DNA of 64,000 nucleotides from an uncultured Spirochaetota bacterium. Its GTDB lineage: Bacteria > Spirochaetota > UBA4802 > UBA5550. The DNA is taken from the NCBI GenBank assembly GCA_963827275.1, contig CAWHAA010000005.1, positions 1 to 64,000 on the forward strand, read 5' to 3'. The notes under the pieces were generated by a model that did no database searches, was not told the DNA's origin, and worked only from the letters and a program-made list of their open reading frames with translations. The translations under genes and the position numbers were made by a program. How positions within the stretch are numbered: position 1 is the stretch's first letter; the number at the start of each line of letters is the position of its first letter. Positions 40,766 through 58,497 of this stretch are shown piece after piece.

Positions 40766-40794
40766 TTGACTTTCGGCTCGCCTAACAGTAGCCT
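40766..40794 (+). promoter_or_regulatory. candidate Pc cassette promoter
   Basis: TTGACT-17-TAGCCT just upstream of first cassette. Confidence 0.55.
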
Positions 40795-40799
40795 TAAAA

Positions 40800-40833
40800 A
40801 ATCATTAAGAAATTCGGACAATTTTAGTTAAAC
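40800..40833 (+). other. attI: attI site (core GTTAAAC at 40827-40833)
   Basis: First GTTRRRY not preceded by an attC arm, between intI and cassette 1. Confidence 0.75.
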
Positions 40834-41300
40834 GCCATTTCGAGCGGCGGCCGCGGTTTTTTTGTTATAAATAAAAGAAAAAAATAGGGTTGGCTTTTCT
40901 TTCGATCATATAATAATTAAGGCAATAATCTTTTCGTTCGGTTGCAGCTTAACATTACGCGGCCGCCTCTGGGCTCGCAGGTCTCTCAGTATCGTTTTAT
41001 TGGGTCTTTCTGTTGATTCATAGATATGGGATAACCGACTGACGATATTGGTATGCAACTACTGTCGGTTGCAATACATCGCATAAAGCTTTAACTGGCA
41101 GGTCCTGCGATCCCAGTCGAAACGGCGCTTAACAAAGCATGGGGCGCTGCGCGCGGCCACGAAAATTTAGACGCTGTGGCCGCGCTTGGCCTCGCGCCTT
41201 TCCGCCAGCGGCGGTACTGATTGGCGGATGTTCTAACGCACCGCCACTGGCGGGGCGCTCGGCACACCGCCCTGCGGGCGGCGTCGCCCATGCTTGGACG
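40828..41300 (+). ncRNA. gene-less structured cassette, allele A (cassette 1)
   Basis: No conserved ORF; nested inverted repeats; six copies; RNA status inferred. Confidence 0.5.
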
Positions 41301-41306
41301 TTAAAC
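41127..41306 (+). repeat. attC: attC1 (180 bp)
   Basis: GCTTAAC-aaagcatggg...cccatgcttggac-GTTAAAC. Confidence 0.88.
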
Positions 41307-41772
41307 GCCATTTCGAGCGGCGGCCGCGGTTTTTTTGTTATGAATAAAAGAAAAAAGAGGGTTGGCTTTTCTTTCGATCATATAATAATTAAGGCAATAG
41401 TCTTTTCGTTCGGTTGTAGCTTAACATTACGCGGCCGCCTCTGGGCTCGCAGGTCTCTCAGTATCGTTTTATTGGGTCTTTCTGTTGATTCATAGATATG
41501 GGATAACCGACTGACAATATTGGTGTGCAACTATTGTCGGTTGCACTACATCGCATAAAGCCTTAACAGACAGGTCCTGCGATCCCAGTCGAAACGGCGT
41601 TTAACAAAGCATGGGGCGCTGCGCGCGGCCACGAAAATTTAGACGCTGTGGCCGCGCTTGGCCTCGCGCCTTTCCGCCAGCGGCGGTGCTGATTGGCGGA
41701 TGTTCTAACGCACCGCCACTGGCGGGGCGCTCGGCACACCGCCCTTCGGGCGGCGTCGGCCATGCTTGGACG
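41301..41772 (+). ncRNA. gene-less structured cassette, allele B (cassette 2)
   Basis: Near-identical to 40828-41300 with allele-specific SNPs. Confidence 0.5.
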
Positions 41773-41778
41773 TTAAGC
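41599..41778 (+). repeat. attC: attC2 (180 bp)
   Basis: GTTTAAC...GTTAAGC, same family as attC1. Confidence 0.88.
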
Positions 41779-41891
41779 GCAATACAGCGCTGGCTTTGGG
41801 TTGGCTTTATGGTTGGTCCGGCCTCCTGCCGGCCTTTAATTATGAATTTCATTTTTAAAATATTCTTTTTCATTATTATAGGTTTTTATAT

Positions 41892-42605
41892 ATGAAAAGA
41901 TTAATTACTATTCTATCAATAACTTTCACTTTAATTTATTGTGAAAAATCTTATTCTAATTATTATCTGGGTCCTTATATATCTGTAGCTGTAGGTCAAA
42001 TGGCTCATACACAATCTTCAATTCGAGAAGTTTATGATAATTATATTTTTGGCGGAGGTGGAATCTTCCAAACATCGATTTATCGACGAGGTTTATATAA
42101 TTATAGATTAAATTTTTGTTTCGAAAAGATTTATATACCACATACGACCAAACTTGGAACTGATTTTAGAAATACAATTCGAGGAAATTTAATTAATACA
42201 ATTGCTTATTCAATTTATAAAAAAAGGAATTATAATTTATGGATCGGGCCGCAAATCGGTCTTCATATTTTATGGGGCGACAATTATCTAAGTGATAATA
42301 AATATAATAAATTGAATACGATCCTCATTTCATCAATAATAATGAATCCTGAACTACCACTAATCATTTTACTATATTCTTCGAATAATTATGTGAAATT
42401 TACTGATTTTATTTTTAGTTTTGCTCCGGAAATTGGCATTGATATAAATGCAACAGACTTTTTAATTATATCATTGGAAAGTGGATTGAGAGTAGGTATT
42501 CATTTGCCAACAAATAAAATATCTAGCTCTGTTACATTGTATAGATTTGAAGGATTTTTTAATCTTTCATTTTTATTTAGAATTAACAAAGAAGAAAATA
42601 CATAA
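41892..42605 (+). CDS. cassette 3 hypothetical secreted/outer-membrane protein
   Basis: AT-rich 237-aa ORF, signal-peptide-like start, beta-strand-like C-terminus. Confidence 0.7.
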   Translation: MKRLITILSITFTLIYCEKSYSNYYLGPYISVAVGQMAHTQSSIREVYDNYIFGGGGIFQTSIYRRGLYNYRLNFCFEKIYIPHTTKLGTDFRNTIRGNLINTIAYSIYKKRNYNLWIGPQIGLHILWGDNYLSDNKYNKLNTILISSIIMNPELPLIILLYSSNNYVKFTDFIFSFAPEIGIDINATDFLIISLESGLRVGIHLPTNKISSSVTLYRFEGFFNLSFLFRINKEENT

Positions 42606-42663
42606 TTTTATTATGCCGCCGCCGTCCTGACGGCGGCAACTTGAACTGGGAGCGCTGTACTGC

Positions 42664-42843
42664 GCTTAACAAAGCATGGGACGCTGCGCGCGGCCACGAA
42701 AATTTAGACGCTGTGGCCGCGCTTGGCCTCGCGCCTTTCCGCCAGCGGCGGTGCCGATTGGCGGATGTTCTAACGCACCGCCACTGGCGGGGCGCTCGGC
42801 ACACCGCCCTTCGGGCGGCGTCGCCCATGCTTGAACGTTAAAC
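42664..42843 (+). repeat. attC: attC3 (180 bp)
   Basis: GCTTAAC...GTTAAAC. Confidence 0.88.
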
Positions 42844-43309
42844 GCCATTTCGAGCGGCGGCCGCGGTTTTTTTGTTATAAATAAAAGAAAAAAGAGGGTT
42901 GGCTTTTCTTTCGATCATATAATAATTAAGGCAATAGTCTTTTCGTTCGGTTGCAGCTTAACATTACGCGGCCGCCTCTGGGCTCGCAGGTCTCTCAGTA
43001 TCGTTTTATTGGGTCTTTCTGTTGATTCATAGATATGGGATAACCGACTGACGATATTGGTATGCAACTACTGTCGGTTGCAATACATCGCATAAAGCTT
43101 TAACTGGCAGGTCCTGCGATCCCAGTCGAAACGGCGCTTAACAAAGCATGGGGCGCTGCGCGCGGCCACGAAAATTTAGACGCTGTGGCCGCGCTTGGCC
43201 TCGCGCCTTTCCGCCAGCGGCGGTACTGATTGGCGGATGTTCTAACGCACCGCCACTGGCGGGGCGCTCGGCACACCGCCCTTCGGGCGGCGTCGCCCAT
43301 GCTTGGACG
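42838..43309 (+). ncRNA. gene-less structured cassette, allele A (cassette 4), includes attC4 43136-43315
   Basis: Repeat of cassette 1. Confidence 0.5.
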
Positions 43310-43781
43310 TTAAACGCCATTTCGAGCGGCGGCCGCGGTTTTTTTGTTATGAATAAAAGAAAAAAGAGGGTTGGCTTTTCTTTCGATCATATAATAATTA
43401 AGGCAATAGTCTTTTCGTTCGGTTGTAGCTTAACATTACGCGGCCGCCTCTGGGCTCGCAGGTCTCTCAGTATCGTTTTATTAAGTCTTTCTGTTGATTC
43501 ATAGATATGGGATAACCGACTGACAATATTGGTGTGCAACTATTGTCGGTTGCACTACATCGCATAAAGCCTTAACAGACAGGTCCTGCGATCCCAGTCG
43601 AAACGGCGTTTAACAAAGCATGGGGCGCTGCGCGCGGCCACGAATATTTAGACGCTGTGGCCGCGCTTGGCCTCGCGCCTTTCCGCCAGTGGCGGTACTG
43701 ATTGGCGGATGTTCTAACGCACCGCCACTGGCGGGGCGCTCGGCACACCGCCCTTCGGGCGGCGTCGCCCATGCTTGGACG
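43310..43781 (+). ncRNA. gene-less structured cassette, allele B (cassette 5), includes attC5 43608-43787
   Basis: Repeat of cassette 2. Confidence 0.5.
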
Positions 43782-44491
43782 TTAAGCGCAATACAGCGGC
43801 TTTATTTTTTTGCTTTATTCTGGGGCCGGCCTCCTGCCGGACTATTCTTAAAGAAAATGCTTTTTTATTAATGTCCTGGAAGTCTATATCCACCTTTTCC
43901 ACTCAATTCTTGTAAGAGTGTAGAGATATTTTTTTATTATTAAAGAAATACTAAATAAAATATTCTGAAAAATAGCTCAATCTGTTCTCTTTTAGCTAAG
44001 ACGCAAGAGTAGTCTTTTTGATTTATTTTTTTATGTTTTTCTTGACCAGTATTCTCATGTGCATATATATAATTCTGTATTAAAATACTTTTTAAATATT
44101 AATACAAAAGAAAATGTTTGGACATTTGTTCGCCGTGAATTTATTGTACTGAAACGTAAGAGCATACTTTTTTAATTTATTATTTTCTTGGCTTATTCTT
44201 AACCGTAATAGTTATCTATTTTTTACATACTTCAGTATAAATATTATTTTTTTGCTGTAAGTGTATTTGCCGCCGCCGTCCTGACGGCGGCAACTTGAAC
44301 TGATAGCGCTGTACTGCGCTTAACAAAGCATGGGGCGCTGCGCGCGGCCACGAAAATTTAGACGCTGTGGCCGCGCTTGGCCTCGCGCCTTTCCGCCAGT
44401 GGCGGTGCCGATTGGCGGATGTTCTATCGCACCGCCGCTGGCGGGGCGCTCGGCACACCGCCCTTCGGGCGGCGTCGCCCATGCTTGGACG
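43782..44491 (+). other. second type of gene-less AT-rich cassette (cassette 6), attC6 44318-44497
   Basis: No credible ORF inside; ends shared with cassette 3. Confidence 0.7.
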
Positions 44492-44524
44492 TTAGGCGCA
44501 ATTTGGTTGATATTTAATAATATT

Positions 44525-45034
44525 ATGACAAATTTATTATCCTTAAAAGAAATAGAAAGCGAAGTAAATAATCTTGCAAGATTGATAAATGCACCAAAAG
44601 ATTATTTGCCAACATTTGGCTATACAAATGATTTTGCACAACCTCATATTGAGATAAATTATAATCAGTATCACTATGTAATTGTCGAGCGTGGCCAAGA
44701 ATTTGAAAGAAAATCAACGGAAAATATTCATGAACTTTTATATTGGATATTTGAATCAATAACATTTAATATGGCTATTGATTATGAATTTAAAAATAGA
44801 ATTGAAGATCTTGATTCTAGACGTATTGCTTTTAAAAAACAAGAAGAATTATTAAATCTACTTAATCCAGATTGGAAGAATACATTAGAAAATAAACATA
44901 AATTAATATTAGAAAAACATCCTTTTGATGACTTATCTGGTTTAAGGGCAACATATTGTAGGGAGTTGAGAGAAAAAGGATATTGTGAAGATGATATAAC
45001 TAAAAAGGCTTATGAAAAATATCCTTTGCCTTGA
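44525..45034 (+). CDS. Imm63-like polymorphic-toxin immunity protein (cassette 7)
   Basis: P..YLPTFG...PHIEI..YHYV..ERGQE..R..T....ELLYWIF..IT..MA..YE...R....D.RR..F..Q.ELL. Confidence 0.75.
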   Translation: MTNLLSLKEIESEVNNLARLINAPKDYLPTFGYTNDFAQPHIEINYNQYHYVIVERGQEFERKSTENIHELLYWIFESITFNMAIDYEFKNRIEDLDSRRIAFKKQEELLNLLNPDWKNTLENKHKLILEKHPFDDLSGLRATYCRELREKGYCEDDITKKAYEKYPLP

Positions 45035-45046
45035 CAACCAAACTGC

Positions 45047-45220
45047 GCATAACAAAGCATAGCCGCTCCGCTCCTCGCTCGCTAAGGCTCGCTGCGGTGC
45101 TCGGCCTCGCGCTTATCCCGCCAGCTGCGGCGGTGATTTGGGGAGGGTTTTGAGCCGCCTTGCTGGCGGGGCGCTCGGCAACCTGGCTTCGCCAGGTTCG
45201 GCTATGCTGAGACGTTAGGC
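45047..45220 (+). repeat. attC: attC7 (174 bp)
   Basis: GCATAAC-aaagcatagccg...cggctatgctgagac-GTTAGGC. Confidence 0.88.
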
Positions 45221-45298
45221 GCCATTTCTGGCTGGCTTTTTTATTTCCTCGCCATCCATGGCTCGGAATTATTATCATATTTTATCAGGAGGACATTT

Positions 45299-45883
45299 AT
45301 GGGTCTAATTGTTCATTCATTAGAAAACATACCTCAATCTTCAAATAGGGATTATATAATATATTTACTCGATTATGGCTGGAGTGAACCAATTGGAAAA
45401 GCTCTTAATGATAATTTTGATCATATGGCTAATATTGCAGCAAATAATCGAGCTGTAATTATTAAGGGAACTAGATTAGGTGATTTTGCAAACGAAGTTT
45501 TTTCTTGGCATCATATAAATAATATTGATGCCGATGACATTCTTCCTGCATTATTAATTACCAATAAACATCCCGTATATTTTAAAGATTATGAGTTTGG
45601 ATATCGCCAAAAAAAGGGATTATATAGAGACACCAAAGATGATGATTTAAAATTAATTCTAATACCTTTTAAAAAGTTTTGTAAAACAACAACTGAGGTA
45701 ATTTCTTTAATCGAAAAAGTATTTTCTGATATAATTAACAAAAAGGATTTATCAAATTTTTCTGTAGCAAAAGAAATGAAAAAAGGAATATGTTCTGCAA
45801 TTGTAGACGCTATAATACTTGAGCCTAATTTTTCCGGAATTGGTTTTAGTTTTAATAAATTCAGGAGTTATTTAAAAACTTAA
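45299..45883 (+). CDS. hypothetical protein (cassette 8)
   Basis: 194-aa ORF with strong AGGAGG RBS filling the cassette. Confidence 0.8.
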   Translation: MGLIVHSLENIPQSSNRDYIIYLLDYGWSEPIGKALNDNFDHMANIAANNRAVIIKGTRLGDFANEVFSWHHINNIDADDILPALLITNKHPVYFKDYEFGYRQKKGLYRDTKDDDLKLILIPFKKFCKTTTEVISLIEKVFSDIINKKDLSNFSVAKEMKKGICSAIVDAIILEPNFSGIGFSFNKFRSYLKT

Positions 45884-45958
45884 AATTAACTTATTTGTAA
45901 TTACTCAAAAGTACATCCATGTACTTTTGAACTTTTTCGTTTTAATGCCAGAAACGGC

Positions 45959-46206
45959 GCCTAACAAAGCATAACCGCTCCGCTCCTCGCCCACTTCGCG
46001 GGCTGCGGTGCTCGGCCTCGCGCCTGGCCGCCTCCGTCGGTGCCGATTTGGGGATGATCTAAAGCACCGACTCCGGCGGCGCGCTCGGCTCATTTTTCGG
46101 CGCTTCTTAGTTTCAAATAAATTAGTACTTGCAAAATTGCTTACAACAGGATAGATAACTTTTCGCGGCCAGGCCTCAAAACGACGGTTATGCTTGGACG
46201 TTAAGC
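45959..46206 (+). repeat. attC: attC8 (248 bp, with AT-rich internal insert)
   Basis: GCCTAAC-aaagcataaccg...cggttatgcttggac-GTTAAGC. Confidence 0.8.
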
Positions 46207-46374
46207 GACATTGCCATTTTTTTATGTATTTGGAGTTATGAATGATTCCATCAGAAAGACACCCAATTGTTTCATTCTTCCTTGATGCTTATTTCATTGA
46301 AACATTTTTAAATCTTATAAAAAAATTATATCTGCCGAACGAGTATTTTAATATATCTATAAGAATAATATTTA

Positions 46375-46863
46375 ATGATAATATTCATATTTTACCATGC
46401 TTACTATTATAAAAAAACAAAATTCCGCACTATTGGCGAACTTATTACTGGAACCTATATAGATAGTGATGGTAATAAATATTTTCTTAATCCATTTTAT
46501 TTAAATCGTTTTATTTTATGGGTTCCAATGTTTCTCACCTTTGTTGGTTTAAAATCTGTAAATATAATTCAAATAAATGACTTAAAATTAATTTCATCAT
46601 TAATATTTATTGGCATTTTATTATTAACATATTTTTCATACATCATGTTAAATAGAGGATATGTTATCGGTTTAATTTTATTATTAATAATTTATGCTTC
46701 TTTAATTTTTAATGTAATATACAATAAAGGATTTATTATAAAATTATTTGATTGGGAATTAATAATAGAATTCACATTATTATTGTTATTTATAACAATA
46801 ATAATAGCATATTGGATTATAAGAATGAATAAATTTCAAAATATAAATGGCAACGTCGCTTAA
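46375..46863 (+). CDS. multi-pass membrane hypothetical protein (cassette 9); 5' end uncertain
   Basis: Hydrophobic ORF whose stop lies in the attC R'' box. Confidence 0.65.
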   Translation: MIIFIFYHAYYYKKTKFRTIGELITGTYIDSDGNKYFLNPFYLNRFILWVPMFLTFVGLKSVNIIQINDLKLISSLIFIGILLLTYFSYIMLNRGYVIGLILLLIIYASLIFNVIYNKGFIIKLFDWELIIEFTLLLLFITIIIAYWIIRMNKFQNINGNVA

Positions 46864-47029
46864 CACGGCGTTCACGCTCCGCTCCTCGGGGCTTCGCCCC
46901 TGCGGTGCTCGGCTTCGCGCCTCGCCCGCCGGTTTCGGCGGTTTTCGGAGGAGTGTTCTGAGCCGTTTCACCGGCGGGGGCGCTCAGCAACCTGGCTTCG
47001 CCAGGTTCGTAAACGCCGGAACGTTAAAC
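46858..47029 (+). repeat. attC: attC9 (172 bp)
   Basis: GCTTAAC-acggcgttcacg...cgtaaacgccggaac-GTTAAAC. Confidence 0.85.
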
Positions 47030-47495
47030 GCCATTTCGAGCGGCGGCCGCGGTTTTTTTGTTATAAATAAAAGAAAAAAGAGGGTTGGCTTTTCTTTCGA
47101 TCATATAATAATTAAGGCAATAGTCTTTTCGTTCGGTTGCAGCTTAACATTACGCGGCCGCCTCTGGGCTCGCAGGTCTCTCAGTATCGTTTTTTTGGGT
47201 CTTTCTGTTGATTCATAGATATGGGATAACCGACTGACGATATTGGTATGCAACTACTGTCGGTTGCAATACATCGCATAAAGCTTTAACTGGCAGGTCC
47301 TGCGATCCCAGTCGAAACGGCGCTTAACAAAGCATGGGGCGCTGCGCGCGGCCACGAAAATTTAGACGCTGTGGCCGCGCTTGGCCTCGCGCCTTTCCGC
47401 CAGCGGCGGTACTGATTGGCGGATGTTCTAACGCACCGCCACTGGCGGGGCGCTCGGCACACCGCCCTGCGGGCGGCGTCGCCCATGCTTGGACG
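47024..47495 (+). ncRNA. gene-less structured cassette, allele A (cassette 10), includes attC10 47322-47501
   Basis: Repeat of cassette 1. Confidence 0.5.
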
Positions 47496-47547
47496 TTAGG
47501 CGAAAAAACGCCAAAATATAAGTCGAGGTAAAAAGGAAATTTATATT

Positions 47548-49989
47548 ATGGAAATTTATGCTATACTATTAAAATTATTTGATTTTCTTAATAAAATGTC
47601 TAATATTTCCTTTACAACATTTATCGCATTCATAGGAGCTATTACTGGTTCATTAACTTTTTATTATACTTTTTTAAAAAGATTTAATCCAAAATGTATA
47701 ATTAGTGGTGATATTATTTTTCATTGCAACAAAGGTTCTTTAAAAAATAATGATGCCTATTTAAAAGAAATAGAGTTAAATATTACATTCAGCAATGAAT
47801 CTAATAAGTATGGGTTGATTGAAGACCTACTAGTTCGTATATATTCAACGGATGGGATCACAAGAGAAACTGATCCTACCCCACAATTCGACCAGTTTCA
47901 AGTTTAGTTTTCTCGATCACTAACATATCATTATATTGTTTTGGCGTCATCCCTTTTAATCTCTTTTGAGGTCTTTCCTCGTTATATTCTCTCCACCATT
48001 CATGAATAATCTCTCTGGCTGTACTCAGTTTTTTAAAATAATGAGCACTGAGACATTCATTCCGAAATGTTCCATTAAAACTTTCTATGTGGCAATTATC
48101 TGATGGCTTGCCGGGCCTTGTGAAAATTATTTTAATCCCCTTTTCATAGCACCAACGGTCGAGTTCCTGGCTTCTAAATTCAGGACCATTGTCACATTGT
48201 ATAAATTCTGGATACCCAAAGGATTCACATGCTCTTTCAAGTAGTTCAGAAACATCCTTACCCGTTATTGAAAATCCAGTATGAATAAGTGGCGAATGAT
48301 TCGTTACAGGGTCAATCGCTGTCAGTATTTTGAGATTCTTTTTAAAGCCCACCGAGTCATGAATGAAATCTAAAGCCCATATGACGCCAGGTTCATTCGG
48401 CAATTCAACGGGTGATCGTTCTAATGAAGCTATCTTTTTCCGACGTTTCCGCGCTCGTAATTGCAGCCCATGCTCTTTATATATCCTTTCTGTACGCTTA
48501 TGATTAATCAGTATCCCTTTTTGCCTCAGCTTGAGCTGTATCATTCCGCAGCCATATTTTGAATTTTTTGAAAGGATCGAATCTATCTCTCCAATGATTC
48601 GTGCGTCATCATTTGGCTGCGGACTATATAAAAATGTAGAACGAGCCATGCAAGAAACCTTGCATGATCGTCGTATCGAAAACCCGAAGCTACTCATCAG
48701 ATAGCTTACTGCCTCTCTCTTCACTCCGGGTCGCAGAACTTTTTTATGATCTCCTTCTGTGCCATGTTATCCAGGGATAAATCGGCAACCAGTTTCTTTA
48801 ATCGTGTATTTTCATCTTCAAGTAGTCGCAATCGAACAATTTCCTGAGAGCTCATATCTCCATATTTGCGCTTCCAGATATAAAAGGAGTTCTCACTAAT
48901 GCCGTGTTCTCGGGCGATATCCTTTACCTTTTTTCCCGCCTTATGCTCACCAAGGATCCTGACAATCTGCTCTTCTGAGAATCGTTTTTTCATTTTAACC
49001 TCATTAGTCTTGATTATTTATCGGTTAAAACTAAACTATCTCGTGGTACAAATTTAAGGGGTGGGATCAAAACCACTCCTTATTTTATAAGTCTTTTCAA
49101 GGATCATGATAATCCTGATAAATTGCCATTTTACCCTATCGTATTAATCCCTAAAAGTTTTCGTTCATCTACATTTATCTTTATCGATCGAATTGCCGCA
49201 TCAGAAAAAATAATAAATATTGATCGTGATTATAATCTTCAATTATTCATTAAATATAAAAAAGAAAATAATTGGGTTTTAATTGATGATATAACTCTAT
49301 ATTGTAAATTAAAAGATAATACCAATCAATTATTTGATTTAATATTTATGTCTATAAATCAACAGATTATTCGCGATAAGGCTAAAGACTATATTGGGAA
49401 AATTCCAAAACCTTTTTACAGAGGAATAATACATCAATGGTTTAAAATTATATTTGAGGAAGTTAAGTTTTTCATTATAAGGACAATTTATAAATTGTTG
49501 CATTTCATACAATGTATTTACCATCTTATTCTCTCTGGAATTAATTGGCTTGTATCTTTTATTGTAATAAATAACCTATTAATATTTTTATCTTCAAAGA
49601 CTAAGGAAATTAAAACAAGTAGCCAAATTGGTCCCGATGAGCAAACACTGGATTATATAAAAAAACTACACAAAGTAATTTTAAAATTAGTTACTAAAAT
49701 TAATAATAGATCAGAAAGCAAAATTGATATTCAATACAAAGGCAAAGATATTTTATTAAGTCGCAATAATTTTGAAATTATTATTTATGCACCTGGCGTT
49801 AACCATATAATGGCACATGATAAAGAAAGTCATGAATATAAGCTTTTTCTTGAATTTGCGATGGTTGTAAATAGGATTAATCATAAATATTGGACATATG
49901 ATGATAAATTTATATCGATTACGAGAATAGCATTAAAAATTATTGATAGTTTTAGCTTAATGACTCAATATAAAATAATTCCTGAATAA
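47548..49989 (+). pseudogene. 412-aa hypothetical cassette-11 gene split by an IS3-family element
   Basis: Removing IS 47871-49069 and one AAAC fuses 47548-47870 in frame with 49074-49989. Confidence 0.85.
47871..49069 (-). mobile_element. IS3-family (IS407-group-like) element, 1199 bp, 4-bp target duplication AAAC; orfA 48721-48993, orfB 47876-48724
   Basis: IRs TGATCC(T/C)ACCCC; orfA MKKRFSEEQI; orfB DDE (WALDF, CDNGPEF, ESFNG); A6G slippery site at 48739-48745. Confidence 0.95.
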
Positions 49990-50002
49990 TTGACGTTTCT
50001 TC

Positions 50003-50125
50003 GCCTAACAAAGCATAACCGCTGCGCGCGGCCACAAGAAATGAAGCTGTGGCCGTGCTCGGCCTGCGGCACACCGCGCCAAGGGAGGAAGCTGGCGCGG
50101 CGTCGGTTATGCTTGGACGTTAAGC
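50003..50125 (+). repeat. attC: attC11 (123 bp)
   Basis: GCCTAAC...GTTAAGC. Confidence 0.87.
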
Positions 50126-50189
50126 GCCATGGAAAAAGAGCTTTTTGCCCGCCATCCGTGGCGGGCTTTTTAAGAAATATATTTTTTTC

Positions 50190-50218
50190 TTGACATGTAG
50201 TCATTATATGACTACTTT
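50190..50218 (+). promoter_or_regulatory. TA cassette promoter with palindromic operator
   Basis: TTGACA-17-TACTTT; GTAGTCAT-tat-ATGACTAC. Confidence 0.8.
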
Positions 50219-50223
50219 GATTT

Positions 50224-50487
50224 ATGTTCTCAGTTAAAATATCAAAAAAGGCTATTAAGGGCATTCATAAAATGCCCATTAAAATTCAAGAAAGAATGAA
50301 TGTCCTTCTTAAAGATCTACGTGCAAAAGGACCCATGCGATATGAATGGCCAAATTTTAGTAAATTAGATGAAAATCTGTATCATTGTCATTTAGCTCAC
50401 AAATGGATCGCATGCTGGAAATATGAAAAACATACAATCATTATAGAGGTTTATTATGCAGGCTCACGTGAAAACGCCCCATATTAA
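50224..50487 (+). CDS. RelE/ParE-superfamily toxin (toxin-first TA, cassette 12)
   Basis: 87 aa, V.ISKKA.K.I.KMP..., YHCHL, EVYYAGSRENAPY; upstream of HTH gene. Confidence 0.7.
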   Translation: MFSVKISKKAIKGIHKMPIKIQERMNVLLKDLRAKGPMRYEWPNFSKLDENLYHCHLAHKWIACWKYEKHTIIIEVYYAGSRENAPY

Positions 50488-50824
50488 AATTAATATTAAA
50501 GGTGAAATTCATCCCAAAGTTCTTTCTGTTTTAAAAGAAGTCTATGGGAAAAAAGTTAAACTTATCAAGGAAAATGATGAAGAATTAGTTGATGCCTTTG
50601 AAACTGAATGGTTTAAAAATATTGATGCCACCATGTCTCCCGGCAAAAACATGAGGATATATCGAGAAATTCATAAAATGACCCAAGAAGAACTAGGTAA
50701 CAAATTAGGTGGCATTTCTAAACAAAATATTTCTCATATGGAACGAGGTATTAGACCTATTAGTAAAAAAACTGCTAAATCATTGGCTTCAATTTTTAAA
50801 GTTCCGGCAGACCGTTTTATTTGA
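50456..50824 (+). CDS. XRE-family HTH antitoxin (HigA-like)
   Basis: PG.NMRIYRE...MTQEELG.KLG.ISKQNISHMERG.RPIS. Confidence 0.85.
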   Translation: MQAHVKTPHIKINIKGEIHPKVLSVLKEVYGKKVKLIKENDEELVDAFETEWFKNIDATMSPGKNMRIYREIHKMTQEELGNKLGGISKQNISHMERGIRPISKKTAKSLASIFKVPADRFI

Positions 50825-50900
50825 CTATTTTTAAGATATTGCCCTGCCCTCGCCCGTCCTGGACTCGGGCAGTAAATACTTATACTATTTTTTCCACGGC

Positions 50901-51079
50901 GCTTAACACGGCGTTCACGCTCCGCTCCTCGGCGGCTTATTGGCGCCTGCGGTGCTCGGCTTCGCGCCTTGCCCGCCGGTTTCGGCGGTTTTCAGAGGAG
51001 TGTTTTGAGCCGCCTCACCGGCGGGCGCGCTCAGCAACCTGGCCTGCGGCCAGGTTCGTAAACGCCGGAGACGTTAAAC
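50901..51079 (+). repeat. attC: attC12 (179 bp, attC9 family)
   Basis: GCTTAAC...GTTAAAC. Confidence 0.85.
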
Positions 51080-52482
51080 GCCATTTCGAGCGGCGGCCGC
51101 GGTTTTTTTGTTATGAATAAAAGAAAATAAATAAGGTTGGCTTTTCTTTCGATCATATAATAATTAAGGTGTAATAGACTCGATTTAATCTGACACTCTT
51201 CCGATAAATGGAGCAGAAAATGCTCTGAATAATTATACGGAGGAGTACATGACAACAGAACAGAAAGTCATCAGGAACAAAATGGGGTTATTAAACCTCG
51301 CAGAGCAGATTGGGAATGTCAAAAAAGCATGTCACATTATGGGATATTCCCGAGACAGTTACTACCGGCTAAAGGAACTTTATGATACTGGTGGTGAAGA
51401 AGCGTTAAAAGAAATCAGCAGAAAAAAAGCTAATATAAAGAATCGTGTTGATCCAAGTGTTGAAACTGCAGTTAACAGCATTGCAATTGAGTATCCCGCA
51501 TTTGGACAGGTTCGGGCTTCTAATGAACTGAGAAAACAGGGGATATTTGTCTCACCTACCGGAGTAAGAAGCATATGGCTCCGTAATGATCTTGAAACCA
51601 TGAAGAAGCGGCTCAAGGCACTTGAGGCCAAGGTCGCTCAAGATGGAATCATTCTCACGGAATCACAGCTTGCCGCATTAGAGAAAGCCAAAGAGGAAAA
51701 GGAAGCTCATGGTGAGATTGTATCTGAACATCCTGGTTATCTGGGTTCGCAGGACACAATGTATGTAGGAACGGTCAAAGGTGTTGGCCGGATATACCAG
51801 CAGACTTTTATAGACACGTATTGTAAGGTGGCTTTTGCAAAGTTATACAATATGAAAACACCAATTACCTCTGCCGACATATTGAACGACAGGGTTATAC
51901 CGTTTTATGAAAACAGCAGCATTAAGCTGATCCGAGTATTGACGGATCGTGGTACCGAATATTGCGGGAAAATGGAAAGTCATGACTATGAACTGTTTCT
52001 TTCGATTGAGGATATTGAGCACACAAAGACAAAGACGCGGCATCCTCAAACAAATGGAATATGCGAAAGATTTCATCGAACCATTCAAGATGAATTTTAT
52101 CGCATAGCATTTAGAAAGAAAATTTACAACACTCTTGATGAACTTCAGAAGGATCTTGACATATGGATTGTTCAATATAATAATGAGAGACCGCATAGTG
52201 GAAAATATTGTTATGGCAAAACACCGATAGATACGTTCAAGGATTCGTTAGTGCTTGCAAAAGAAAAACTGCTAAACTTTAACTGACAGGCAGTTTGGAA
52301 GTGATTGGTGAGTGTCAGATGAAGTTCAGAGTTTTACAATTAAGGCAATAATCTTTTCGTTCGGTTGCAGCTTAACATTACGCGGCCGCCTCTGGGCTCG
52401 CAGGTCTCTCAGTATCGTTTTATTGGGTCTTTCTGTTGATTCATAGATATGGGATAACCGACTGACGATATTGGTATGCAAC
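51074..52482 (+). ncRNA. sixth copy of gene-less cassette, interrupted by IS481 and truncated by IS3
   Basis: 51074-51169 and 52339-52482 match the cassette. Confidence 0.5.
51170..52338 (+). mobile_element. IS481-family element, 1169 bp, 7-bp target duplication ATTAAGG; transposase 51249-52286
   Basis: TGT...ACA ends with ATCTGACACT inner IR; HPGYLGSQDT, LTDRGTEYCG, TNGICERFH. Confidence 0.93.
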
Positions 52483-53681
52483 TGATCCTACCCCACAATT
52501 CGACCAGTTTCAAGTTTAGTTTTCTCGATCACTAACATATCATTATATTGTTTTGGCGTCATCCCTTTTAATCTCTTTTGAGGTCTTTCCTCGTTATATT
52601 CTCTCCACCATTCATGAATAATCTCTCTGGCTGTACTCAGTTTTTTAAAATAATGAGCACTGAGACATTCATTCCGAAATGTTCCATTAAAACTTTCTAT
52701 GTGGCAATTATCTGATGGCTTGCCGGGCCTTGTGAAAATTATTTTAATCCCCTTTTCATAGCACCAACGGTCGAGTTCCTGGCTTCTAAATTCAGGACCA
52801 TTGTCACATTGTATAAATTCTGGATACCCAAAGGATTCACATGCTCTTTCAAGTAGTTCAGAAACATCCTTACCCGTTATTGAAAATCCAGTATGAATAA
52901 GTGGCGAATGATTCGTTACAGGGTCAATCGCTGTCAGTATTTTGAGATTCTTTTTAAAGCCCACCGAGTCATGAATGAAATCTAAAGCCCATATGACGCC
53001 AGGTTCATTCGGCAATTCAACGGGTGATCGTTCTAATGAAGCTATCTTTTTCCGACGTTTCCGCGCTCGTAATTGCAGCCCATGCTCTTTATATATCCTT
53101 TCTGTACGCTTATGATTAATCAGTATCCCTTTTTGCCTCAGCTTGAGCTGTATCATTCCGCAGCCATATTTTGAATTTTTTGAAAGGATCGAATCTATCT
53201 CTCCAATGATTCGTGCGTCATCATTTGGCTGCGGACTATATAAAAATGTAGAACGAGCCATGCAAGAAACCTTGCATGATCGTCGTATCGAAAACCCGAA
53301 GCTACTCATCAGATAGCTTACTGCCTCTCTCTTCACTCCGGGTCGCAGAACTTTTTTATGATCTCCTTCTGTGCCATGTTATCCAGGGATAAATCGGCAA
53401 CCAGTTTCTTTAATCGTGTATTTTCATCTTCAAGTAGTCGCAATCGAACAATTTCCTGAGAGCTCATATCTCCATATTTGCGCTTCCAGATATAAAAGGA
53501 GTTCTCACTAATGCCGTGTTCTCGGGCGATATCCTTTACCTTTTTTCCCGCCTTATGCTCACCAAGGATCCTGACAATCTGCTCTTCTGAGAATCGTTTT
53601 TTCATTTTAACCTCATTAGTCTTGATTATTTATCGGTTAAAACTAAACTATCTCGTGGTACAAATTTAAGGGGTGGGATCA
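52483..53681 (-). mobile_element. second copy of the IS3-family element (orfA 53333-53605, orfB 52488-53336); flanks do not match
   Basis: Same proteins and IRs as 47871-49069; left flank CAAC, right flank AAAC. Confidence 0.95.
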
Positions 53682-53689
53682 AAACCCAT

Positions 53690-54142
53690 ATGAAAATACT
53701 TATAAAACTCCTGCCATTTATATTAGGTGGTGCCTTAGTTATTCAATCTTCACTAAATAAATCAATTGCCCAATCAAAAGGCTTAAGCACAGCATTAGTC
53801 ATAAATGGATTAATTGTTGTATTCTGTTCATTAATAATATTTATTTTATCATATTTTTTCCCACATCACTTCTCGGAAATTATTACTTATAACAACAATA
53901 ATTTGATATTTAAATGGTGGTATATAATTCCTGGTTTTTTAGGATTTTGTGCATTATTAATTCTTCCAATTGGAATTATGAAAATTGGTGCCTTACCAAT
54001 TTTTCTTGGAGTAATTGCTGGGCAAATAATCGTAAGTATTATATATGATTTTTATTTTGAAAATATTTCAATTAATTTAATTCGTGTATCAGGAGCCTTA
54101 TTAACTTTTATTGGAGCCTTTTTGGTAGTTTGGAAAAGATGA
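53690..54142 (+). CDS. DMT-superfamily (YdcZ-like) transporter (cassette 14)
   Basis: G...Q...N, WW..PG.LG, IG......GQ...S..YD pattern. Confidence 0.8.
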   Translation: MKILIKLLPFILGGALVIQSSLNKSIAQSKGLSTALVINGLIVVFCSLIIFILSYFFPHHFSEIITYNNNNLIFKWWYIIPGFLGFCALLILPIGIMKIGALPIFLGVIAGQIIVSIIYDFYFENISINLIRVSGALLTFIGAFLVVWKR

Positions 54143-54317
54143 ATAATTATTCAAATCACAAGTAATAACCAACAAATAACTAATAACTTGACAAAATATG
54201 TATTTATTATTATAGAATATATAAATTACATGCAAAATATTATTTTTTTTTACCTTAATGTTGCTTTTCGCCATCCATGGCTCAAAGCAAATATGCCTTA
54301 ATGTGTATGGCCACTTC

Positions 54318-54455
54318 ACCTAACAAAGCATAGCCGCTGCGCGCGGGAATACCGCGCTTGGCCTCCGCGCCAAGATATGAAGACGGCGCTACGGCACATT
54401 TTCACCTCCGCGAGTACGCTCCGGTGAAAACGTCGGCTATGCTTGGACGTTATAC
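54318..54455 (+). repeat. attC: attC13 (138 bp)
   Basis: ACCTAAC-aaagcatagccg...cggctatgcttggac-GTTATAC. Confidence 0.87.
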
Positions 54456-54515
54456 GCCATGGCAAACTTTTCGCCTGCCATCCATGGCGGGCGTGGTATT
54501 TCATAATAAAATATG

Positions 54516-54544
54516 TTGACAAGTAACCCTTATTTGGTTACATT
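54516..54544 (+). promoter_or_regulatory. second TA cassette promoter with a different palindromic operator
   Basis: TTGACA-17-TACATT; GTAACC-n7-GGTTAC. Confidence 0.8.
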
Positions 54545-54549
54545 GCATT

Positions 54550-54813
54550 ATGTATAAAGTAGTAATTACAAAAAGCACCCTCAAAGGCATTGAAAAAATG
54601 CCTAAATTTTCACAATTAGCAATGGGGAACTTAGTTGATGATCTTAAGGAGTGTGGCCCTATTCAAAAACACTGGGCTAATTTTAGTAAAATTGGAAAGA
54701 ATAAATTCCATTGCCATTTATCATATAAATGGGTTGCATGCTGGGAATTTTATGAAAATAATATATTAATTGAGGTTTATTATGCAGGTTCACGTGAAAA
54801 CGCCCCGTATTAA
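54550..54813 (+). CDS. RelE/ParE-superfamily toxin, paralogue of 50224-50487
   Basis: Same length; shared NFSK, HCHL, KW.ACW, IEVYYAGSRENAPY. Confidence 0.7.
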   Translation: MYKVVITKSTLKGIEKMPKFSQLAMGNLVDDLKECGPIQKHWANFSKIGKNKFHCHLSYKWVACWEFYENNILIEVYYAGSRENAPY

Positions 54814-55147
54814 AATTGATATTAAAGGCGAAATTTCTAAAAAACACCTTTCTTTGCTGAAAAAAGAATATGGTGAAAATCTTCATTTAATTAATAAAGA
54901 TGATAAGTCTATTGATGTCTTTAAAACTGAATGGTACAAAAATATTAAATCTCAAATGACCCCTGGGACAAATTTAAAAGTTTATAGAATAAATAAAGGA
55001 TTAACCCAAGCTCAGTTAGGGGAATTACTTGGTGGCATTCCTAAACAGCATATATCAAATATGGAAAACGGGAGAAGGCCCATTAGTTTAAAAATGGCAA
55101 AAATTTTAGCCAGATTCTTTAAGGTATCAGTTGATAAATTTGTTTAA
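54782..55147 (+). CDS. XRE-family HTH antitoxin, paralogue of 50456-50824
   Basis: MQVHVKTP..., LTQAQLGELLGGIPKQHISNMENGRRPIS. Confidence 0.85.
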   Translation: MQVHVKTPRIKIDIKGEISKKHLSLLKKEYGENLHLINKDDKSIDVFKTEWYKNIKSQMTPGTNLKVYRINKGLTQAQLGELLGGIPKQHISNMENGRRPISLKMAKILARFFKVSVDKFV

Positions 55148-55222
55148 TTTTTTATTACCTTTGGCCCGCCTCCGCACGTCCTGTGCTTCGGCGGTAGAGC
55201 TTTTTTACTTCATTGCCACGGC

Positions 55223-55528
55223 GTATAACACGGCGTTCACGCTCCGCTCCTCGGCGGACTTGGGCCGCCTGCGGTGCGCTGATCAGGATGATCGAGTGTC
55301 GAGCCGCAACAGGATGTTGCGAAAAGGCTCGACCTCGGCCTCCCGCCTTTCCGCCTCCGTCGGTGCCGATTCGGGGATAATCTAAAGCACCGACTCCGGC
55401 GGGGCGCTCGGCTCATTTTTCGGCGCTTTTAAGTTTCAAATAAATTCTTCTTGCAAAAATGCTTATAACAGGCTAAATAACTTTTAGCAGCCAGGCCTCA
55501 AAACGACGGTTATGCTTGAACGCTATAT
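55223..55528 (+). repeat. attC: chimeric, probably inactive attC14 (306 bp)
   Basis: Left arm of attC9/12 type, right arm of attC8 type; core GCTATAT instead of GTT. Confidence 0.75.
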
Positions 55529-55599
55529 GCAATTGCCCCATTTTATATAGAATAGAAAAATATAGTATAAATATTACAAAAAAATTGTGCATATAAATT

Positions 55600-56355
55600 A
55601 TGTCTGTAGATTATAACCAACTATCAAAACAATATAAAAACTATAGAAGACCTGACACTCGGATTTTAAGGCAAATACAATATTATCTTCAAAATGCTCA
55701 ATGTATTTTAAATGTTGGAGCTGGTATTGGATCCTATGAGCCTGTAGATAGTAAAGTAGTCGCCATCGAACCATCTTTTGAAATGATTTCAAAAAGAGAT
55801 AATTCAAAAGCACTTTTGGTACAAGCAATTGCCGAAAAGCTGCCTTTTAAAAATAATATCTTTGATTGCTCCATGGCAATTTTAACAATACATCATTGGT
55901 CAAATGCAATTTCTGGTCTTAAAGAAATGATCAGAGTTACAAAATATAAAATTGTCTTATTTACTTGGATTGGATATGGCAATAACTTTTGGCTAGAGAA
56001 TTATATACCCGAAATTATTGGAATTGATATAAAATTATTTCCAACAATAGATGAACTTAAACGAATACTTGGAAATGTCATAGTTGAAATTGTTGAAATA
56101 CCTTATGATTGTACAGATGGATTCATGTGTGCCTATTGGAGAAGACCGGAAATGTATTTGGATCCAAATGTGCGGAAGGCCATATCTACTTTCTCACGCA
56201 TACCCGAAAATCCCGAGGGACTAAATAAACTACGAAAGGATATTGAAAGTGGCGAATGGTATAATAAGTACAGCTATTTGCTTGATAAAGAAACTATTGA
56301 TTTAGGATATAGATTAGTTATATCTGAAAACAAAGAATGGGGCAACTGCACATAA
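55600..56355 (+). CDS. class I SAM-dependent methyltransferase (cassette 16)
   Basis: LNVGAGIGSYEP, AIEPS, AEKLPF, TIHHW, AYWRRPE. Confidence 0.88.
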   Translation: MSVDYNQLSKQYKNYRRPDTRILRQIQYYLQNAQCILNVGAGIGSYEPVDSKVVAIEPSFEMISKRDNSKALLVQAIAEKLPFKNNIFDCSMAILTIHHWSNAISGLKEMIRVTKYKIVLFTWIGYGNNFWLENYIPEIIGIDIKLFPTIDELKRILGNVIVEIVEIPYDCTDGFMCAYWRRPEMYLDPNVRKAISTFSRIPENPEGLNKLRKDIESGEWYNKYSYLLDKETIDLGYRLVISENKEWGNCT

Positions 56356-56474
56356 CAAAGCACACCCGCTGCGCGCGGCCACAAGAAATGAAGCTGTGGC
56401 CGTGCTCGGCCTGCGGCACACCGCGCCTAAGGGAGGAAGACGGGCCCGGCGGCGGCTATGCTGGAACGTTGTTC
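56350..56474 (+). repeat. attC: attC15 (125 bp, attC11 family)
   Basis: ACATAAC...GTTGTTC. Confidence 0.75.
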
Positions 56475-56515
56475 GAAACCCGGCGGTTTTGAAATTTGAG
56501 AGGAACTCTTTCATA

Positions 56516-57406
56516 ATGAAAAACTTCAAGTTTAAGAAAATCGATGCTTTTACAGATAAGTCATCTCATGGCAATCCGGCAGCTGGCATTTATTTAGATA
56601 ATCTTAATGATATTTCAGACATGGAAATGCTAACTATAGCCAGTGAACTTAAAGGTTTTGTCAGCGAAGTTGTATTTCTATTTCCAGAGAAGGATGGATA
56701 TTTTTTAAAATACTATTCTTCTGAATGTGAAGTTGAATTTTGCGGCCATGGAACTATTGCAATAATGTTTGATCTGATTAAAAATAGCCCGAATCTTTTA
56801 GATGAAAAAGTCATCAATATTAGAGTTAGAAACGAAAATCTTAAAATCTATAATCAAATTAATAATAATAACTCAATTTTTATAACTGCCCCAAACCCGA
56901 CGTATCATTCTTGTAATATTAATCATAATGATCTAATTTCTTGTCTAAATATTTCTTTAGATACAATTAATAGCAATCTGCCAATTGATATAATAAATGC
57001 CGGACTGAATACTCTAATTGTACCAATTATAAATCTTAATAAATGCCTTAATGTGAAGCCTGACCAAGAAGTTCTAAAATATTTCTGCCTGGACAATACT
57101 ATTGATATAATACATATCTTCACAAATGAAGTATCGAAAGGAACCAATAATTATCGAACAAGAGTTTTTGCTCCAAAGTATGGGTATTTGGAAGATCCGG
57201 CAACTGGTTCTGGCAATTCTGCCTTTGGGTATTATTTATTGAAAAATAACCTATGGGCTGGACAATTACTGAAAATTGAACAAAATAAAGAATATGAAAT
57301 GTCTAATTTGGTGAAATTAAATACGGTAATGTTAGATAATAAACTACGTGTTTTATTTGGCGGCTCCGCAACACTAAAAATAGATGGAGCATATACTTTA
57401 TATTAA
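56516..57406 (+). CDS. PhzF-family isomerase (cassette 17)
   Basis: IDAF....GNPA, SE, EVEFCGHGT, EDPATGS. Confidence 0.9.
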   Translation: MKNFKFKKIDAFTDKSSHGNPAAGIYLDNLNDISDMEMLTIASELKGFVSEVVFLFPEKDGYFLKYYSSECEVEFCGHGTIAIMFDLIKNSPNLLDEKVINIRVRNENLKIYNQINNNNSIFITAPNPTYHSCNINHNDLISCLNISLDTINSNLPIDIINAGLNTLIVPIINLNKCLNVKPDQEVLKYFCLDNTIDIIHIFTNEVSKGTNNYRTRVFAPKYGYLEDPATGSGNSAFGYYLLKNNLWAGQLLKIEQNKEYEMSNLVKLNTVMLDNKLRVLFGGSATLKIDGAYTLY

Positions 57407-57425
57407 GGAATTATCGCCGATATTC

Positions 57426-57550
57426 GCACAACATAGCATAGCCGATCCGCTCCCCGGCGGGCTTGGGCCTCCTGCGGTGCGCTGATCAGGGTGATCGAGT
57501 GTCGAGCCGCAACAGAAGGGTGCAGAAAGGCTCAACCTCGGCACTCGCGC
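57426..57550 (+). repeat. half attC (left arm only)
   Basis: GCACAAC-atagcatagccg plus the insert shared with attC14; no right arm or GTT. Confidence 0.65.
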
Positions 57551-57599
57551 TTGCATCGCCATCCATGGCATCGAATAATAATAGACACGGGCCAATGTA

Positions 57600-58439
57600 A
57601 TGTTTAATGAACTACTTGAAATCAACAGACGGCCAAAACCATTTGAATATTATACTGCTCCAGAATTATGGACGGACGGGCACACCTCTCAAAAAATGCT
57701 GGAGTTTCATTTGAATGAATCAATTGATGTTTCATCAAGAAATATCAATTTCATCAACAAATCATCCGAATGGATAATAAGCCATTTCGGTCTTGATGCC
57801 GCATCCAAAATAATTGATTTTGGATGCGGCCCGGGACTTTATACCTCCCGTTTTGCCAGGAAGGGCATCCACGTAACCGGCATAGATTTTTCAAAGAGAT
57901 CAATTGAATACGCAAAGCAGGCCGCGCTGAACGAAAAACTTGACTGTGACTATATTTGCTGCAATTATCTTGATTTTAAATCATCGAATAAATTCAACCT
58001 GATAACCATGATCATGTGTGATTTTTGCGCTTTAAGTCATGATCAACGAAGGATCATGCTGGGTAAGTTCAAAAATATTTTAACACCAAATGGATCAATA
58101 CTGCTTGATGTCTATTCCATAAACTTTTACAATGCAAGTAAAGAAAAATCCATATATGAATTTAACCAGCAATCTAATTTTTGGTCAGCGGATGATTATT
58201 ATTCTTTTCAGAATACTTTTAAATATGATGACGAGAAAGTTATTCTTGATAAATATACAATTATTGAAAAATCACGAAAACGTGTTGTCTGCAATTGGCT
58301 GCAATGTTTCAGCGTTGATTCATTGAAGAAAGAATTCGAGGAAAATGGCCTGAAAATTATTGAAATATTTTCAGATGTATCAGGATCAGAATACAGACAG
58401 GACTCTTTGGAGATTGCGGTCGTAGCACGGACCATCTGA
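57600..58439 (+). CDS. class I SAM-dependent methyltransferase
   Basis: IIDFGCGPGLY, GIDFS, CDFCALS. Confidence 0.88.
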   Translation: MFNELLEINRRPKPFEYYTAPELWTDGHTSQKMLEFHLNESIDVSSRNINFINKSSEWIISHFGLDAASKIIDFGCGPGLYTSRFARKGIHVTGIDFSKRSIEYAKQAALNEKLDCDYICCNYLDFKSSNKFNLITMIMCDFCALSHDQRRIMLGKFKNILTPNGSILLDVYSINFYNASKEKSIYEFNQQSNFWSADDYYSFQNTFKYDDEKVILDKYTIIEKSRKRVVCNWLQCFSVDSLKKEFEENGLKIIEIFSDVSGSEYRQDSLEIAVVARTI

Positions 58440-58497
58440 TCTGCAGCCAGGCTCAACATCCGTGTTCCGCCTGCCTTGCGGCAGGCCCGCTTTCCGC

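Follow-up and report, generated by a model that had tools for sequence, protein, structure and literature searches.

How can a cassette array work like an integron when neither its recombinase nor its sites are recognized as those of one? The question is raised by the first 64,000 nucleotides of contig CAWHAA010000005.1 (GenBank assembly GCA_963827275.1, an uncultured Spirochaetota bacterium), hereafter the window, in which 17 tandem cassettes (40827-57432) lie downstream of a divergent tyrosine recombinase gene. Judged from its sequence, the array would work like an integron, but its recombinase falls outside the integron integrase IntI, and its sites outside the cassette recombination site attC, as these are currently recognized. 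We consider it probable that the array is a working or recently working non-classical integron served by the adjacent recombinase, which lacks the IntI-specific insertion (I2), and that its cassettes fold into hairpins carrying an unpaired mark at position 11. The initial annotation of the locus had singled out the inverted repeats of the cassettes and missed the larger point, namely an integrase without the IntI-specific domain beside attC sites of non-classical geometry.

An integron-like recombinase without I2

The recombinase gene and the elements between it and the array are listed below.

39542..40657 (-), tyrosine recombinase gene, ~371 aa; the open frame extends to 40744
40766..40800 (+), candidate cassette promoter, with a -35-like hexamer at 40766-40771
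40811..40838 (+), attI-like site: 11-bp arm 40811-40821, 6-bp spacer 40822-40827, 11-bp arm 40828-40838

The catalytic residues of the recombinase were intact (PF00589, E 3e-43), and the R, K, H-x-x-R, H and Y columns were invariant in 15 family members. The I2 region was missing (17 residues versus 55 in VchIntIA, PDB 2A3V), and the motif spacing was 70 versus 106 in IntI1. The TIGR02249 score was 214 bits, under the cut-off of 265 and split over two stretches; this model stayed under its cut-off in all 10 I2-less relatives scanned and exceeded it in both classical controls. The best NCBIfam score came from the XerA-like NF040815 (217 versus a cut-off of 220), and the XerC/D family cut-offs were failed (TIGR02224, 180 versus 335; TIGR02225, 164 versus 330). 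XerA and VchIntIA scored alike in a sequence search of the PDB, and VchIntIA was the top Foldseek match. Two quick trees of I2-less integrases, classical IntI and XerC/D-like proteins placed the first two in one group against the third (support 100; 11 XerC/D-like proteins in one of the trees), with classical IntI as a clade (99-100).

The attI-like site was conserved across 8 aligned integrase-proximal loci. Its second arm comes from the first cassette, which by its sequence is inserted at GTT, and cassette-arm positions 1-3, 8 and 11 were among the invariant columns. The 11+6+11 layout lies within the general range for tyrosine recombinase sites given in a passage of PMC2095811. The -35-like hexamer stood at the same place in aligned relatives and would form part of a cassette promoter.

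Cassette ends pair with each other and leave position 11 unpaired

For each cassette, we took the sequence that ends at its R'' box, reverse-complemented it and compared it with the 5' end. Both ends were kept in 15 of the 17 cassettes, and cassettes 13 and 14 had each lost one end beside a copy of the insertion sequence (IS) IS3. The results showed that the ends of 14 of the 15 testable cassettes pair over 17-21 nt; in each of these, the 5' end has A at position 11, facing a C that lies upstream of R''. Cassette 17 was the exception, with A opposite A. The 3' arm is the stretch that ends at R'', ahead of an attC site of 123-306 nt, and not the final bases of the cassette. Over positions 12-21, cognate pairs from 10 distinct end types matched at 80 of 100 positions, whereas shuffled ends gave a mean of 36.4 matches (sd 6.3) and none of 500,000 permutations reached 80. 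A genome-wide scan for the end signature matched at two places only, this array and a solo cassette on contig C4; with any other base opposite position 11, the same scan gave no match.

These results bear out most of what the initial annotation had claimed about the ends: all nine end pairs that it quoted are present in the sequence, the A/C mismatch is near-invariant, and the extensions co-vary within cassettes. Its statement that every cassette has its own inverted repeat stands for the pairing itself and not for the number of repeats, as there are 10 end types only, one 5' end being common to six gene-less cassettes and cassettes 3 and 6 sharing their ends. The array is laid out as follows.

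40827..41299 (+), cassette 1, gene-less; arms 40827-40843 and 41117-41133; mismatch A40837/C41123; attC 41127-41306
41300..41771 (+), cassette 2, gene-less copy; 3' arm ends at 41605
41772..42836 (+), cassette 3; open reading frame (ORF) 41892-42605, no family; arms 20 nt; 3' arm to 42670
42837..43780 (+), cassettes 4 and 5, gene-less copies; 3' arms end at 43142 and 43614
43781..44490 (+), cassette 6; ends identical to those of cassette 3, interior different; 3' arm to 44324
44491..45213 (+), cassette 7; Imm63 immunity-family gene 44525-45034 (Pfam PF15599, E 7e-25); arms 19 nt; 3' arm to 45053
45214..46199 (+), cassette 8; ORF 45299-45883, no family; arms 19 nt; 3' arm to 45965; attC 248 nt
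46200..47022 (+), cassette 9; ORF 46375-46863, no family; arms 20 nt; 3' arm to 46864
47023..47494 (+), cassette 10, gene-less copy; 3' arm to 47328
47495..50118 (+), cassette 11; IS3-family element inserted (ORFs 47876-48993, - strand); 3' arm to 50009
50119..51072 (+), cassette 12; small gene pair (87 aa, no family; HTH_3 protein), toxin-antitoxin-like to judge from its layout; arms 19 nt; 3' arm to 50907
within 51073..54448 (+), cassette 13, gene-less; IS481 at 51249-52286; 3' end lost
52488-53605, second IS3 copy, between cassettes 13 and 14
within 51073..54448 (+), cassette 14; DMT/YdcZ gene 53690-54142; 5' end lost; attC 54318-54455
54449..55521 (+), cassette 15; homolog of cassette 12; attC 306 nt
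55522..56467 (+), cassette 16; methyltransferase 55600-56355; arms 21 nt; 3' arm to 56356
56468..57560 (+), cassette 17; PhzF-family gene 56516-57406; arms eroded; right half of attC not found

The 472-nt gene-less cassette was present in six copies (40827-47494 and 51073) of two sub-types, with 2-6 differences within and 12-18 between sub-types. Copies occupy ranks 1 and 2 beside attI and are possibly promoter or spacer cassettes. The solo cassette (G000:C4:744295-745376; L020:9296-10377) showed 19-nt end pairing and the position-11 mismatch and lay behind an attI-like sequence; no integrase match was found in the 13.6 kb searched. Its attC is split by an insertion-sequence-like element that may be IS256-like. 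The gene-less near-copies at six different ranks, together with this solo cassette, indicate that cassettes have probably moved as units.

The attC sites have a non-classical geometry

The window holds 15 complete attC sites, 123-306 nt long and with branched tops. In their inner stem, the R' arm was offset by 3 in 14 sites and by 4 in one. Classical attC has an extrahelical G in L'' (position 16) and a second extrahelical base, a T, six pairs further on. A bulge at the classical position of the extrahelical G was found in none of the 15 sites (8 had no bulge, 6 had one at position 11, and 1 had one at position 13, after AAC). There was no bulge in 43 of 55 sites of the host family and in 52 of 73 sites of a group of Bacteroidota, Ignavibacteriota and unassigned loci (the Bacteroidota group), and the commonest bulge lay one base earlier than the classical one. 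Classical attC sites have an unpaired spacer of 5-6 nt per arm, according to a passage of PMC5027507.

A covariance model of classical attC, home-made from 43 classical sites of 57-84 nt, gave 15 matches at E 0.02 or better on held-out classical loci. On the window its best score was 13.3 bits (E 0.28), and on five other I2-less arrays it gave no match at E 1, misses to which site length may add. Sites were located with a heuristic attC finder, which misses some of them and recovered 12 of the 15 in the window.

In the excised circle, the bottom strand is predicted to form an outer stem of 17-21 bp with a T.G pair at position 11, a bulge of 3-4 nt, an inner stem of ~10 bp and a branched top; the 3-4 nt bulge sits on the strand that is cut in classical integrons. 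The bottom strand was predicted to fold more stably than the top strand in 14 of 14 circle forms and 12 of 15 array forms. The predicted energy of the outer duplex averaged -20 kcal/mol for cognate ends versus -9 for non-cognate ends, and the duplex was 1-2 kcal/mol more stable on the bottom strand. Wherever the neighbouring cassette differs, the bottom strand of the circle was predicted to be 9-14 kcal/mol more stable than the array hybrid.

At the tips of the attC-top hairpins (e.g. 41270, 41742, 45185, 46994 and 51042), TTC or TGC on the top strand corresponds to GAA or GCA on the bottom strand. Hairpin loops of GAA or GCA are very stable in single-stranded DNA.

The design recurs across genomes and phyla

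An integrase match at E 1e-30 or better was found in 15 of the 16 other genomes of the genus, and genus genomes with long contigs carried arrays of the same build. The layout of gene, attI-like site and array was repeated in relatives, where 20 kb could contain up to 25 sites. When each species was represented by one genome, a scan gave at least 80 loci, and the same design lay beside distant integrases in Bacteroidota, Ignavibacteriota and other Spirochaetota. Among the matches listed, 29 I2-less integrases had at least 3 kb of downstream DNA, and 9 of these had at least two same-strand sites, all with A at position 11.

The linkage of gene, attI-like site and array, conserved across the genus, the family and distant phyla, bears on whether the neighbouring recombinase could be incidental and the array an orphan cluster, served by the host XerCD or by a classical IntI that the assembly lacks. 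Completeness of the genome is 92%, and an XerC/D-like pair is encoded at another place in it; the XerD-like protein grouped with one from a Spirochaetota genome (support 100), which fits a host in this phylum. The geometry of the arms is Xer-like, and a folded single strand of phage CTX can be integrated by XerCD without extrahelical bases, as part of PMC4792948 describes. A search of the rest of this 92% complete genome found no classical IntI. Such an orphan cluster is very improbable against the conserved linkage, sites that do not fit the classical attC model and a protein that groups with IntI and not with XerC/D.

We then scored position 11 in cognate pairs, for which two sites had to be adjacent and to show no more than one R-box mismatch. 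This requirement dropped 1 of 11 pairs in the window, 2 of 34 in the family, 0 of 4 in other Spirochaetota, 1 of 28 in the Bacteroidota group, 1 of 39 in the classical set and 5 of 55 in the metagenome set (100 loci found afterwards by a left-half pattern). Classical geometry was the criterion by which the classical set (class 1 plasmids and Gammaproteobacteria) had been selected, so that the extrahelical base is present in this set by construction; a second classical control set had only 2 usable pairs. The results showed that position 11 was paired in 0/10 cassettes of the window, 1/32 of the family, 0/4 of other Spirochaetota, 1/27 of the Bacteroidota group and 0/50 of the metagenome set, that is, in 2 of 123 across the host family, other Spirochaetota, the Bacteroidota group and metagenomes. 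It was paired in 0/14 and 0/14 cassettes of two further array sets, with which it was unpaired in 149 of 151, whereas classical cassettes had it paired in 24 of 38, with one A/C case. Position 12 was paired in 90-100% of cassettes in the I2-less sets, except in the Bacteroidota group (59%). The mean unbroken run beyond position 11 was 6.3 nt in the window, 7.1 in the family, 5.8 in other Spirochaetota, 2.6 in the Bacteroidota group and 0.5 in the classical set.

The classical set also corrects the premise, in the initial annotation, that classical complementarity stops at the 7-bp R box. Cognate pairing at positions 8-12 of classical cassettes was 86, 68, 55, 63 and 39%, versus a background of 31, 35, 28, 36 and 22%, and so exceeded background to about position 12; the premise is also contradicted by Bouvier 2009, a passage of which reports end pairing of 9-11 nt in most classical cassettes (PMC2727003). 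A was the commonest base at position 11 of classical cassettes (59%).

The partner of the position-11 base bears on a further alternative, namely that the mismatch belongs to the known G.T bias that stabilizes bottom strands and is not read by a protein. More G:T pairs on the bottom strands of classical attC sites are reported in part of Nivina 2016 (PMC5027507), the T.G form occurred in 29 of 32 family and 48 of 50 metagenome cassettes, and the predicted gain in bottom-strand stability fits such a bias. Stability, however, needs no single fixed position. In the Bacteroidota group (n = 27) the partner gave 13 T.G, 8 T.C, 4 T.T and 2 other combinations, so that 12 of 27 had T.C or T.T and no wobble, and in the two further sets position 10 was often unpaired too (57% and 64% paired), which weakens the stem. 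We therefore regard the constant feature as a T without an A partner, and not as a wobble, and an explanation by G.T bias as improbable. The bottom-strand stem with T.G proposed in the initial annotation thus holds as a predicted outer stem of 17-21 bp, and its fixed wobble does not.

Several further loci were encountered in these scans. The sites of locus L058 were not counted as I2-less type, being classical sites read backwards. Locus L313 (G327:C25:3170000-3189900) carries two arrays of I2-less type on opposite strands near one I2-less integrase. On a Flagellimonas plasmid (L028:11044-12819), an I2-less integrase gene directly follows erm(F), and no attC was found there under the heuristic finder. 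In a scan for phage carriage, 30 viral contigs matched the left-half pattern, with no complete site under the same finder.

The two ends change together

Positions 12-18 comprised 107 different words among 134 cassettes. In six groups of related cassettes with differing ends, 29 positions (within positions 4-17) had changed on both arms to a new pair, whereas one-arm-only changes numbered 2, in two other groups, and 1 change on both arms left no pairing. In cassettes 12 and 15, for example, both arms have changed at positions 5, 6 and 15. The count leaves aside four weaker rows from a 242-nt family that carries a one-base insertion. Some copies of the 242-nt gene-less cassettes at locus L004 have one extra 3'-arm base near position 11, a true bulge and not a mismatch.

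Taken at sequence level, these changes mean that the stem is maintained, because a relic of cassette birth would decay, and that the mismatch is kept against the pairing trend. The scoring of covariation and of position 11 in related genomes that the initial annotation had proposed thus came out in its favour, with 29 both-end versus 2 one-sided changes and position 11 paired in 1 of 32 family cassettes, and its suggestion of a footprint of cassette making, understood as a passive relic, is not supported, since both ends change together.

The same comparison may point to copying. Some cassettes with interiors 68-71% identical had ends differing at 8-11 of 13 positions, and in every case both arms had changed; a 250-nt pair that is 94% identical differed at position 15, again on the two arms; and the same end words recurred on unrelated cargo. 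The two pairs whose ends are more diverged than their interiors suggest that ends may be rewritten by copying. It could then be that a copying step in cassette creation or re-capture (fold-back or template switch) writes the paired ends, and that the mismatch marks the boundary of this step and has little role in recombination. Copying would explain joint changes more easily than two chance mutations, and it accounts for ends that diverge beyond interiors and for shared end words. It would also be expected to pair position 11, which is unpaired with paired flanks in 149 of 151 cassettes, and the prevalence of A at this position in classical cassettes fits a binding arm instead. As a full explanation we consider copying unlikely. 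It can explain the extension, and recognition by the adjacent integrase the mismatch, so that both can hold; either way, position 11 escapes the force that pairs its neighbours.

A hairpin that could replace I2

According to the reading that we favour, in which the adjacent I2-less recombinase serves the array, an excised cassette would be circular, and its bottom strand would fold into a hairpin mimicking an Xer-type double-stranded site: an 11-bp arm and a second arm would flank a 6-nt spacer in which the strand to be cut has 3-4 additional bases. The integrase would bind Xer-like 11-bp arms, which the folded bottom strand would offer as near-perfect duplex, the outer arm being the cassette's own two ends, lengthened to 17-21 bp. 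Because the extension pairs only in the circle, between a cassette's own ends, this private stem would favour release of the excised circle and make the circle a better substrate for insertion at attI. The position-11 base (A on top, T on the bottom), conserved in the binding arm and kept without a Watson-Crick partner, would be read by the integrase, and the spacer bulge and this mark would choose the strand in place of extrahelical bases and I2. In classical integrons, single-stranded attC recombines with double-stranded attI by one strand exchange, and replication resolves the product. Second strand exchange might be avoided here by the lack of spacer homology between attI and attC, which is a guess. 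Passages of PMC2727003 describe classical sites in which attC x attI recombination continues after the extrahelical bases are removed and in which the spacer is still able to determine the strand. The initial annotation had offered the extension as a recognition determinant for this IntI lineage; a recognition role is the best reading, and the feature is not private to the lineage, since it recurs in distant phyla.

Several points weigh against this mechanism. The I2-less protein type is not always accompanied by an array, because about half of the 29 integrases above, among the matches listed, had no site under the heuristic finder (15, beside 4 with one site and 1 false call). Long extensions track the host family and not the integrase subtype, and they are short in the Bacteroidota group, so that positions 13-21 are not a class-wide requirement. 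Kin among the 151 cassettes scored are not independent, and the counts therefore exaggerate how many tests were made. In a classical site, cutting is done by the monomer on the R arm, and an extrahelical T disables the one on the other arm, according to part of PMC2727003; an unpaired T in the R arm therefore cannot act likewise. No circle junction was found in four assembled runs, whose poor cover of the stretch makes them uninformative on activity; no run in public data contained half of the stretch, and no RNA run was among those listed for it.

Other features of the array and the recombinase

The two IS3-family copies (47876-48993 and 52488-53605) encode identical proteins and, with one IS481, lie inside cassettes 11 and 13; the second copy adjoins a deletion that took the 3' end of cassette 13 together with the 5' end of cassette 14. 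At the far end of the array (57432-58520), the cassettes decay into fixed genes, with a methyltransferase at 57600-58439 and attC half-sites close to 57426 and 58498. Immediately beyond the integrase gene (38691-39349), an 88-aa protein without a Pfam match and a Fic/Doc protein form a toxin-antitoxin-like pair. An Rfam scan of the array gave no family. Many cassettes have, a little inward of their ends, a short GC-rich hairpin whose centre contains TCC, and relatives have such hairpins too; in the window they were found at the following positions.

41799-41835, TCC-centre hairpin
42616-42640, TCC-centre hairpin
45251-45262, TCC-centre hairpin
50847-50871, TCC-centre hairpin
54270-54281, TCC-centre hairpin
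54477-54489, TCC-centre hairpin
57558-57569, TCC-centre hairpin

The recombinase has an extra N-terminal domain of ~65 aa with four helices (model pLDDT 93). In the window protein this domain had no Pfam match, and its atlas matches were all under 0.8; 2 of 15 members matched an integrase SAM-like family (E 5e-4). The top four fold matches were recombinase core-binding domains, with Z of only 5.2-5.7, and a profile of the domain had no significant match to the protein's own core-binding domain. The domain may, as a lead only, be a degenerate second core-binding domain. Several distant members have a HARP-like N-terminal domain (Pfam matches in 5 of 16 scanned, one over the cut-off). The N-terminal domain was rejected as the cause of the long extension, as an equally long stem occurs beside an integrase with a different, HARP-like N-terminus.

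Relation to known integrons and recombinases

How could I2 precede attC, or attC precede I2? This chicken-and-egg question is posed in part of Escudero 2016 (PMC4792948), and cassette arrays beside I2-less integrases in one clade with IntI offer a direct test of its answer. The I2-less group was paraphyletic to IntI in a 53-row quick tree (SH-aLRT 80) and its sister clade in one of 37 rows, with 16 dropped (76). Since I2 is absent from the outgroup, the simplest reading would be a single gain of I2 on the classical branch, with hairpin-bounded cassettes before I2; loss of I2 is another possibility. How integrons functioned before they gained the I2 domain may be visible in this design. On an archaeal contig (Undinarchaeales; L036:8250-10819), two tandem I2-less integrases, placed next to classical IntI in a quick tree, are followed by little downstream DNA.

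We propose only tentatively, at somewhat less than even chances, that these loci form a widespread second integron class in Spirochaetota, Bacteroidota and neighbouring phyla, invisible to standard models and representing a pre-I2 state. In such a class an Xer-like integrase would recombine a hairpin that imitates duplex DNA, a fixed unpaired base in the R arm would stand in for the extrahelical bases of the L box, and cassette ends would be actively copied from each other. The number of integrons would then be underestimated by current tools in Bacteroidota, for which a passage on IntegronFinder 2 gives one complete integron (PMC9024848), and in non-Treponema spirochaetes. Paired ends would serve as a simple cassette detector, and both-end changes as a handle on how cassette ends are written, and hence on cassette origin. 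We found no description of an I2-less integron class in the open-access literature, subscription journals lying outside the search; I2-less recombinases found near attC sites, in supplements of PMC4889954 as described in part of that paper, may bear on the present class. A modest extension and a wobble bias were already known; what goes beyond them is a stem of 17-21 bp, one position that is regularly unpaired and the association with an I2-less integrase.

Like classical integrons, both class 1 and the sedentary chromosomal ones such as that of Vibrio cholerae, the array has a recombinase divergent from attI, tandem cassettes, boxes of GTTRRRY and RYYYAAC type, a presumed crossover at the GTT edge and a predicted bottom-strand folding bias, as well as gene-less and toxin-antitoxin-like cassettes and cognate end pairing beyond 7 bp. 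Unlike them, the integrase of the window has no I2 and has an extra N-terminal domain, and the archaeal IntIs described in part of PMC9668308 differ from it in keeping the additional domain. The attC sites of the window, at 123-306 nt and with branched tops, differ from classical ones in having no extrahelical G at the classical place, whereas in Treponema attC the G of the L box protrudes (passage of PMC3607928), and in an R'-arm spacer 3-4 nt longer than that of the R'' arm (0-1 in classical sites). Position 11, mostly paired in classical cassettes, is here a fixed unpaired position within an outer stem of 17-21 bp. The absence of I2 and the 11+6+11 site geometry are shared with XerC/XerD and archaeal XerA; unlike XerC/XerD, the protein of the window lies beside a cassette array and groups with IntI.

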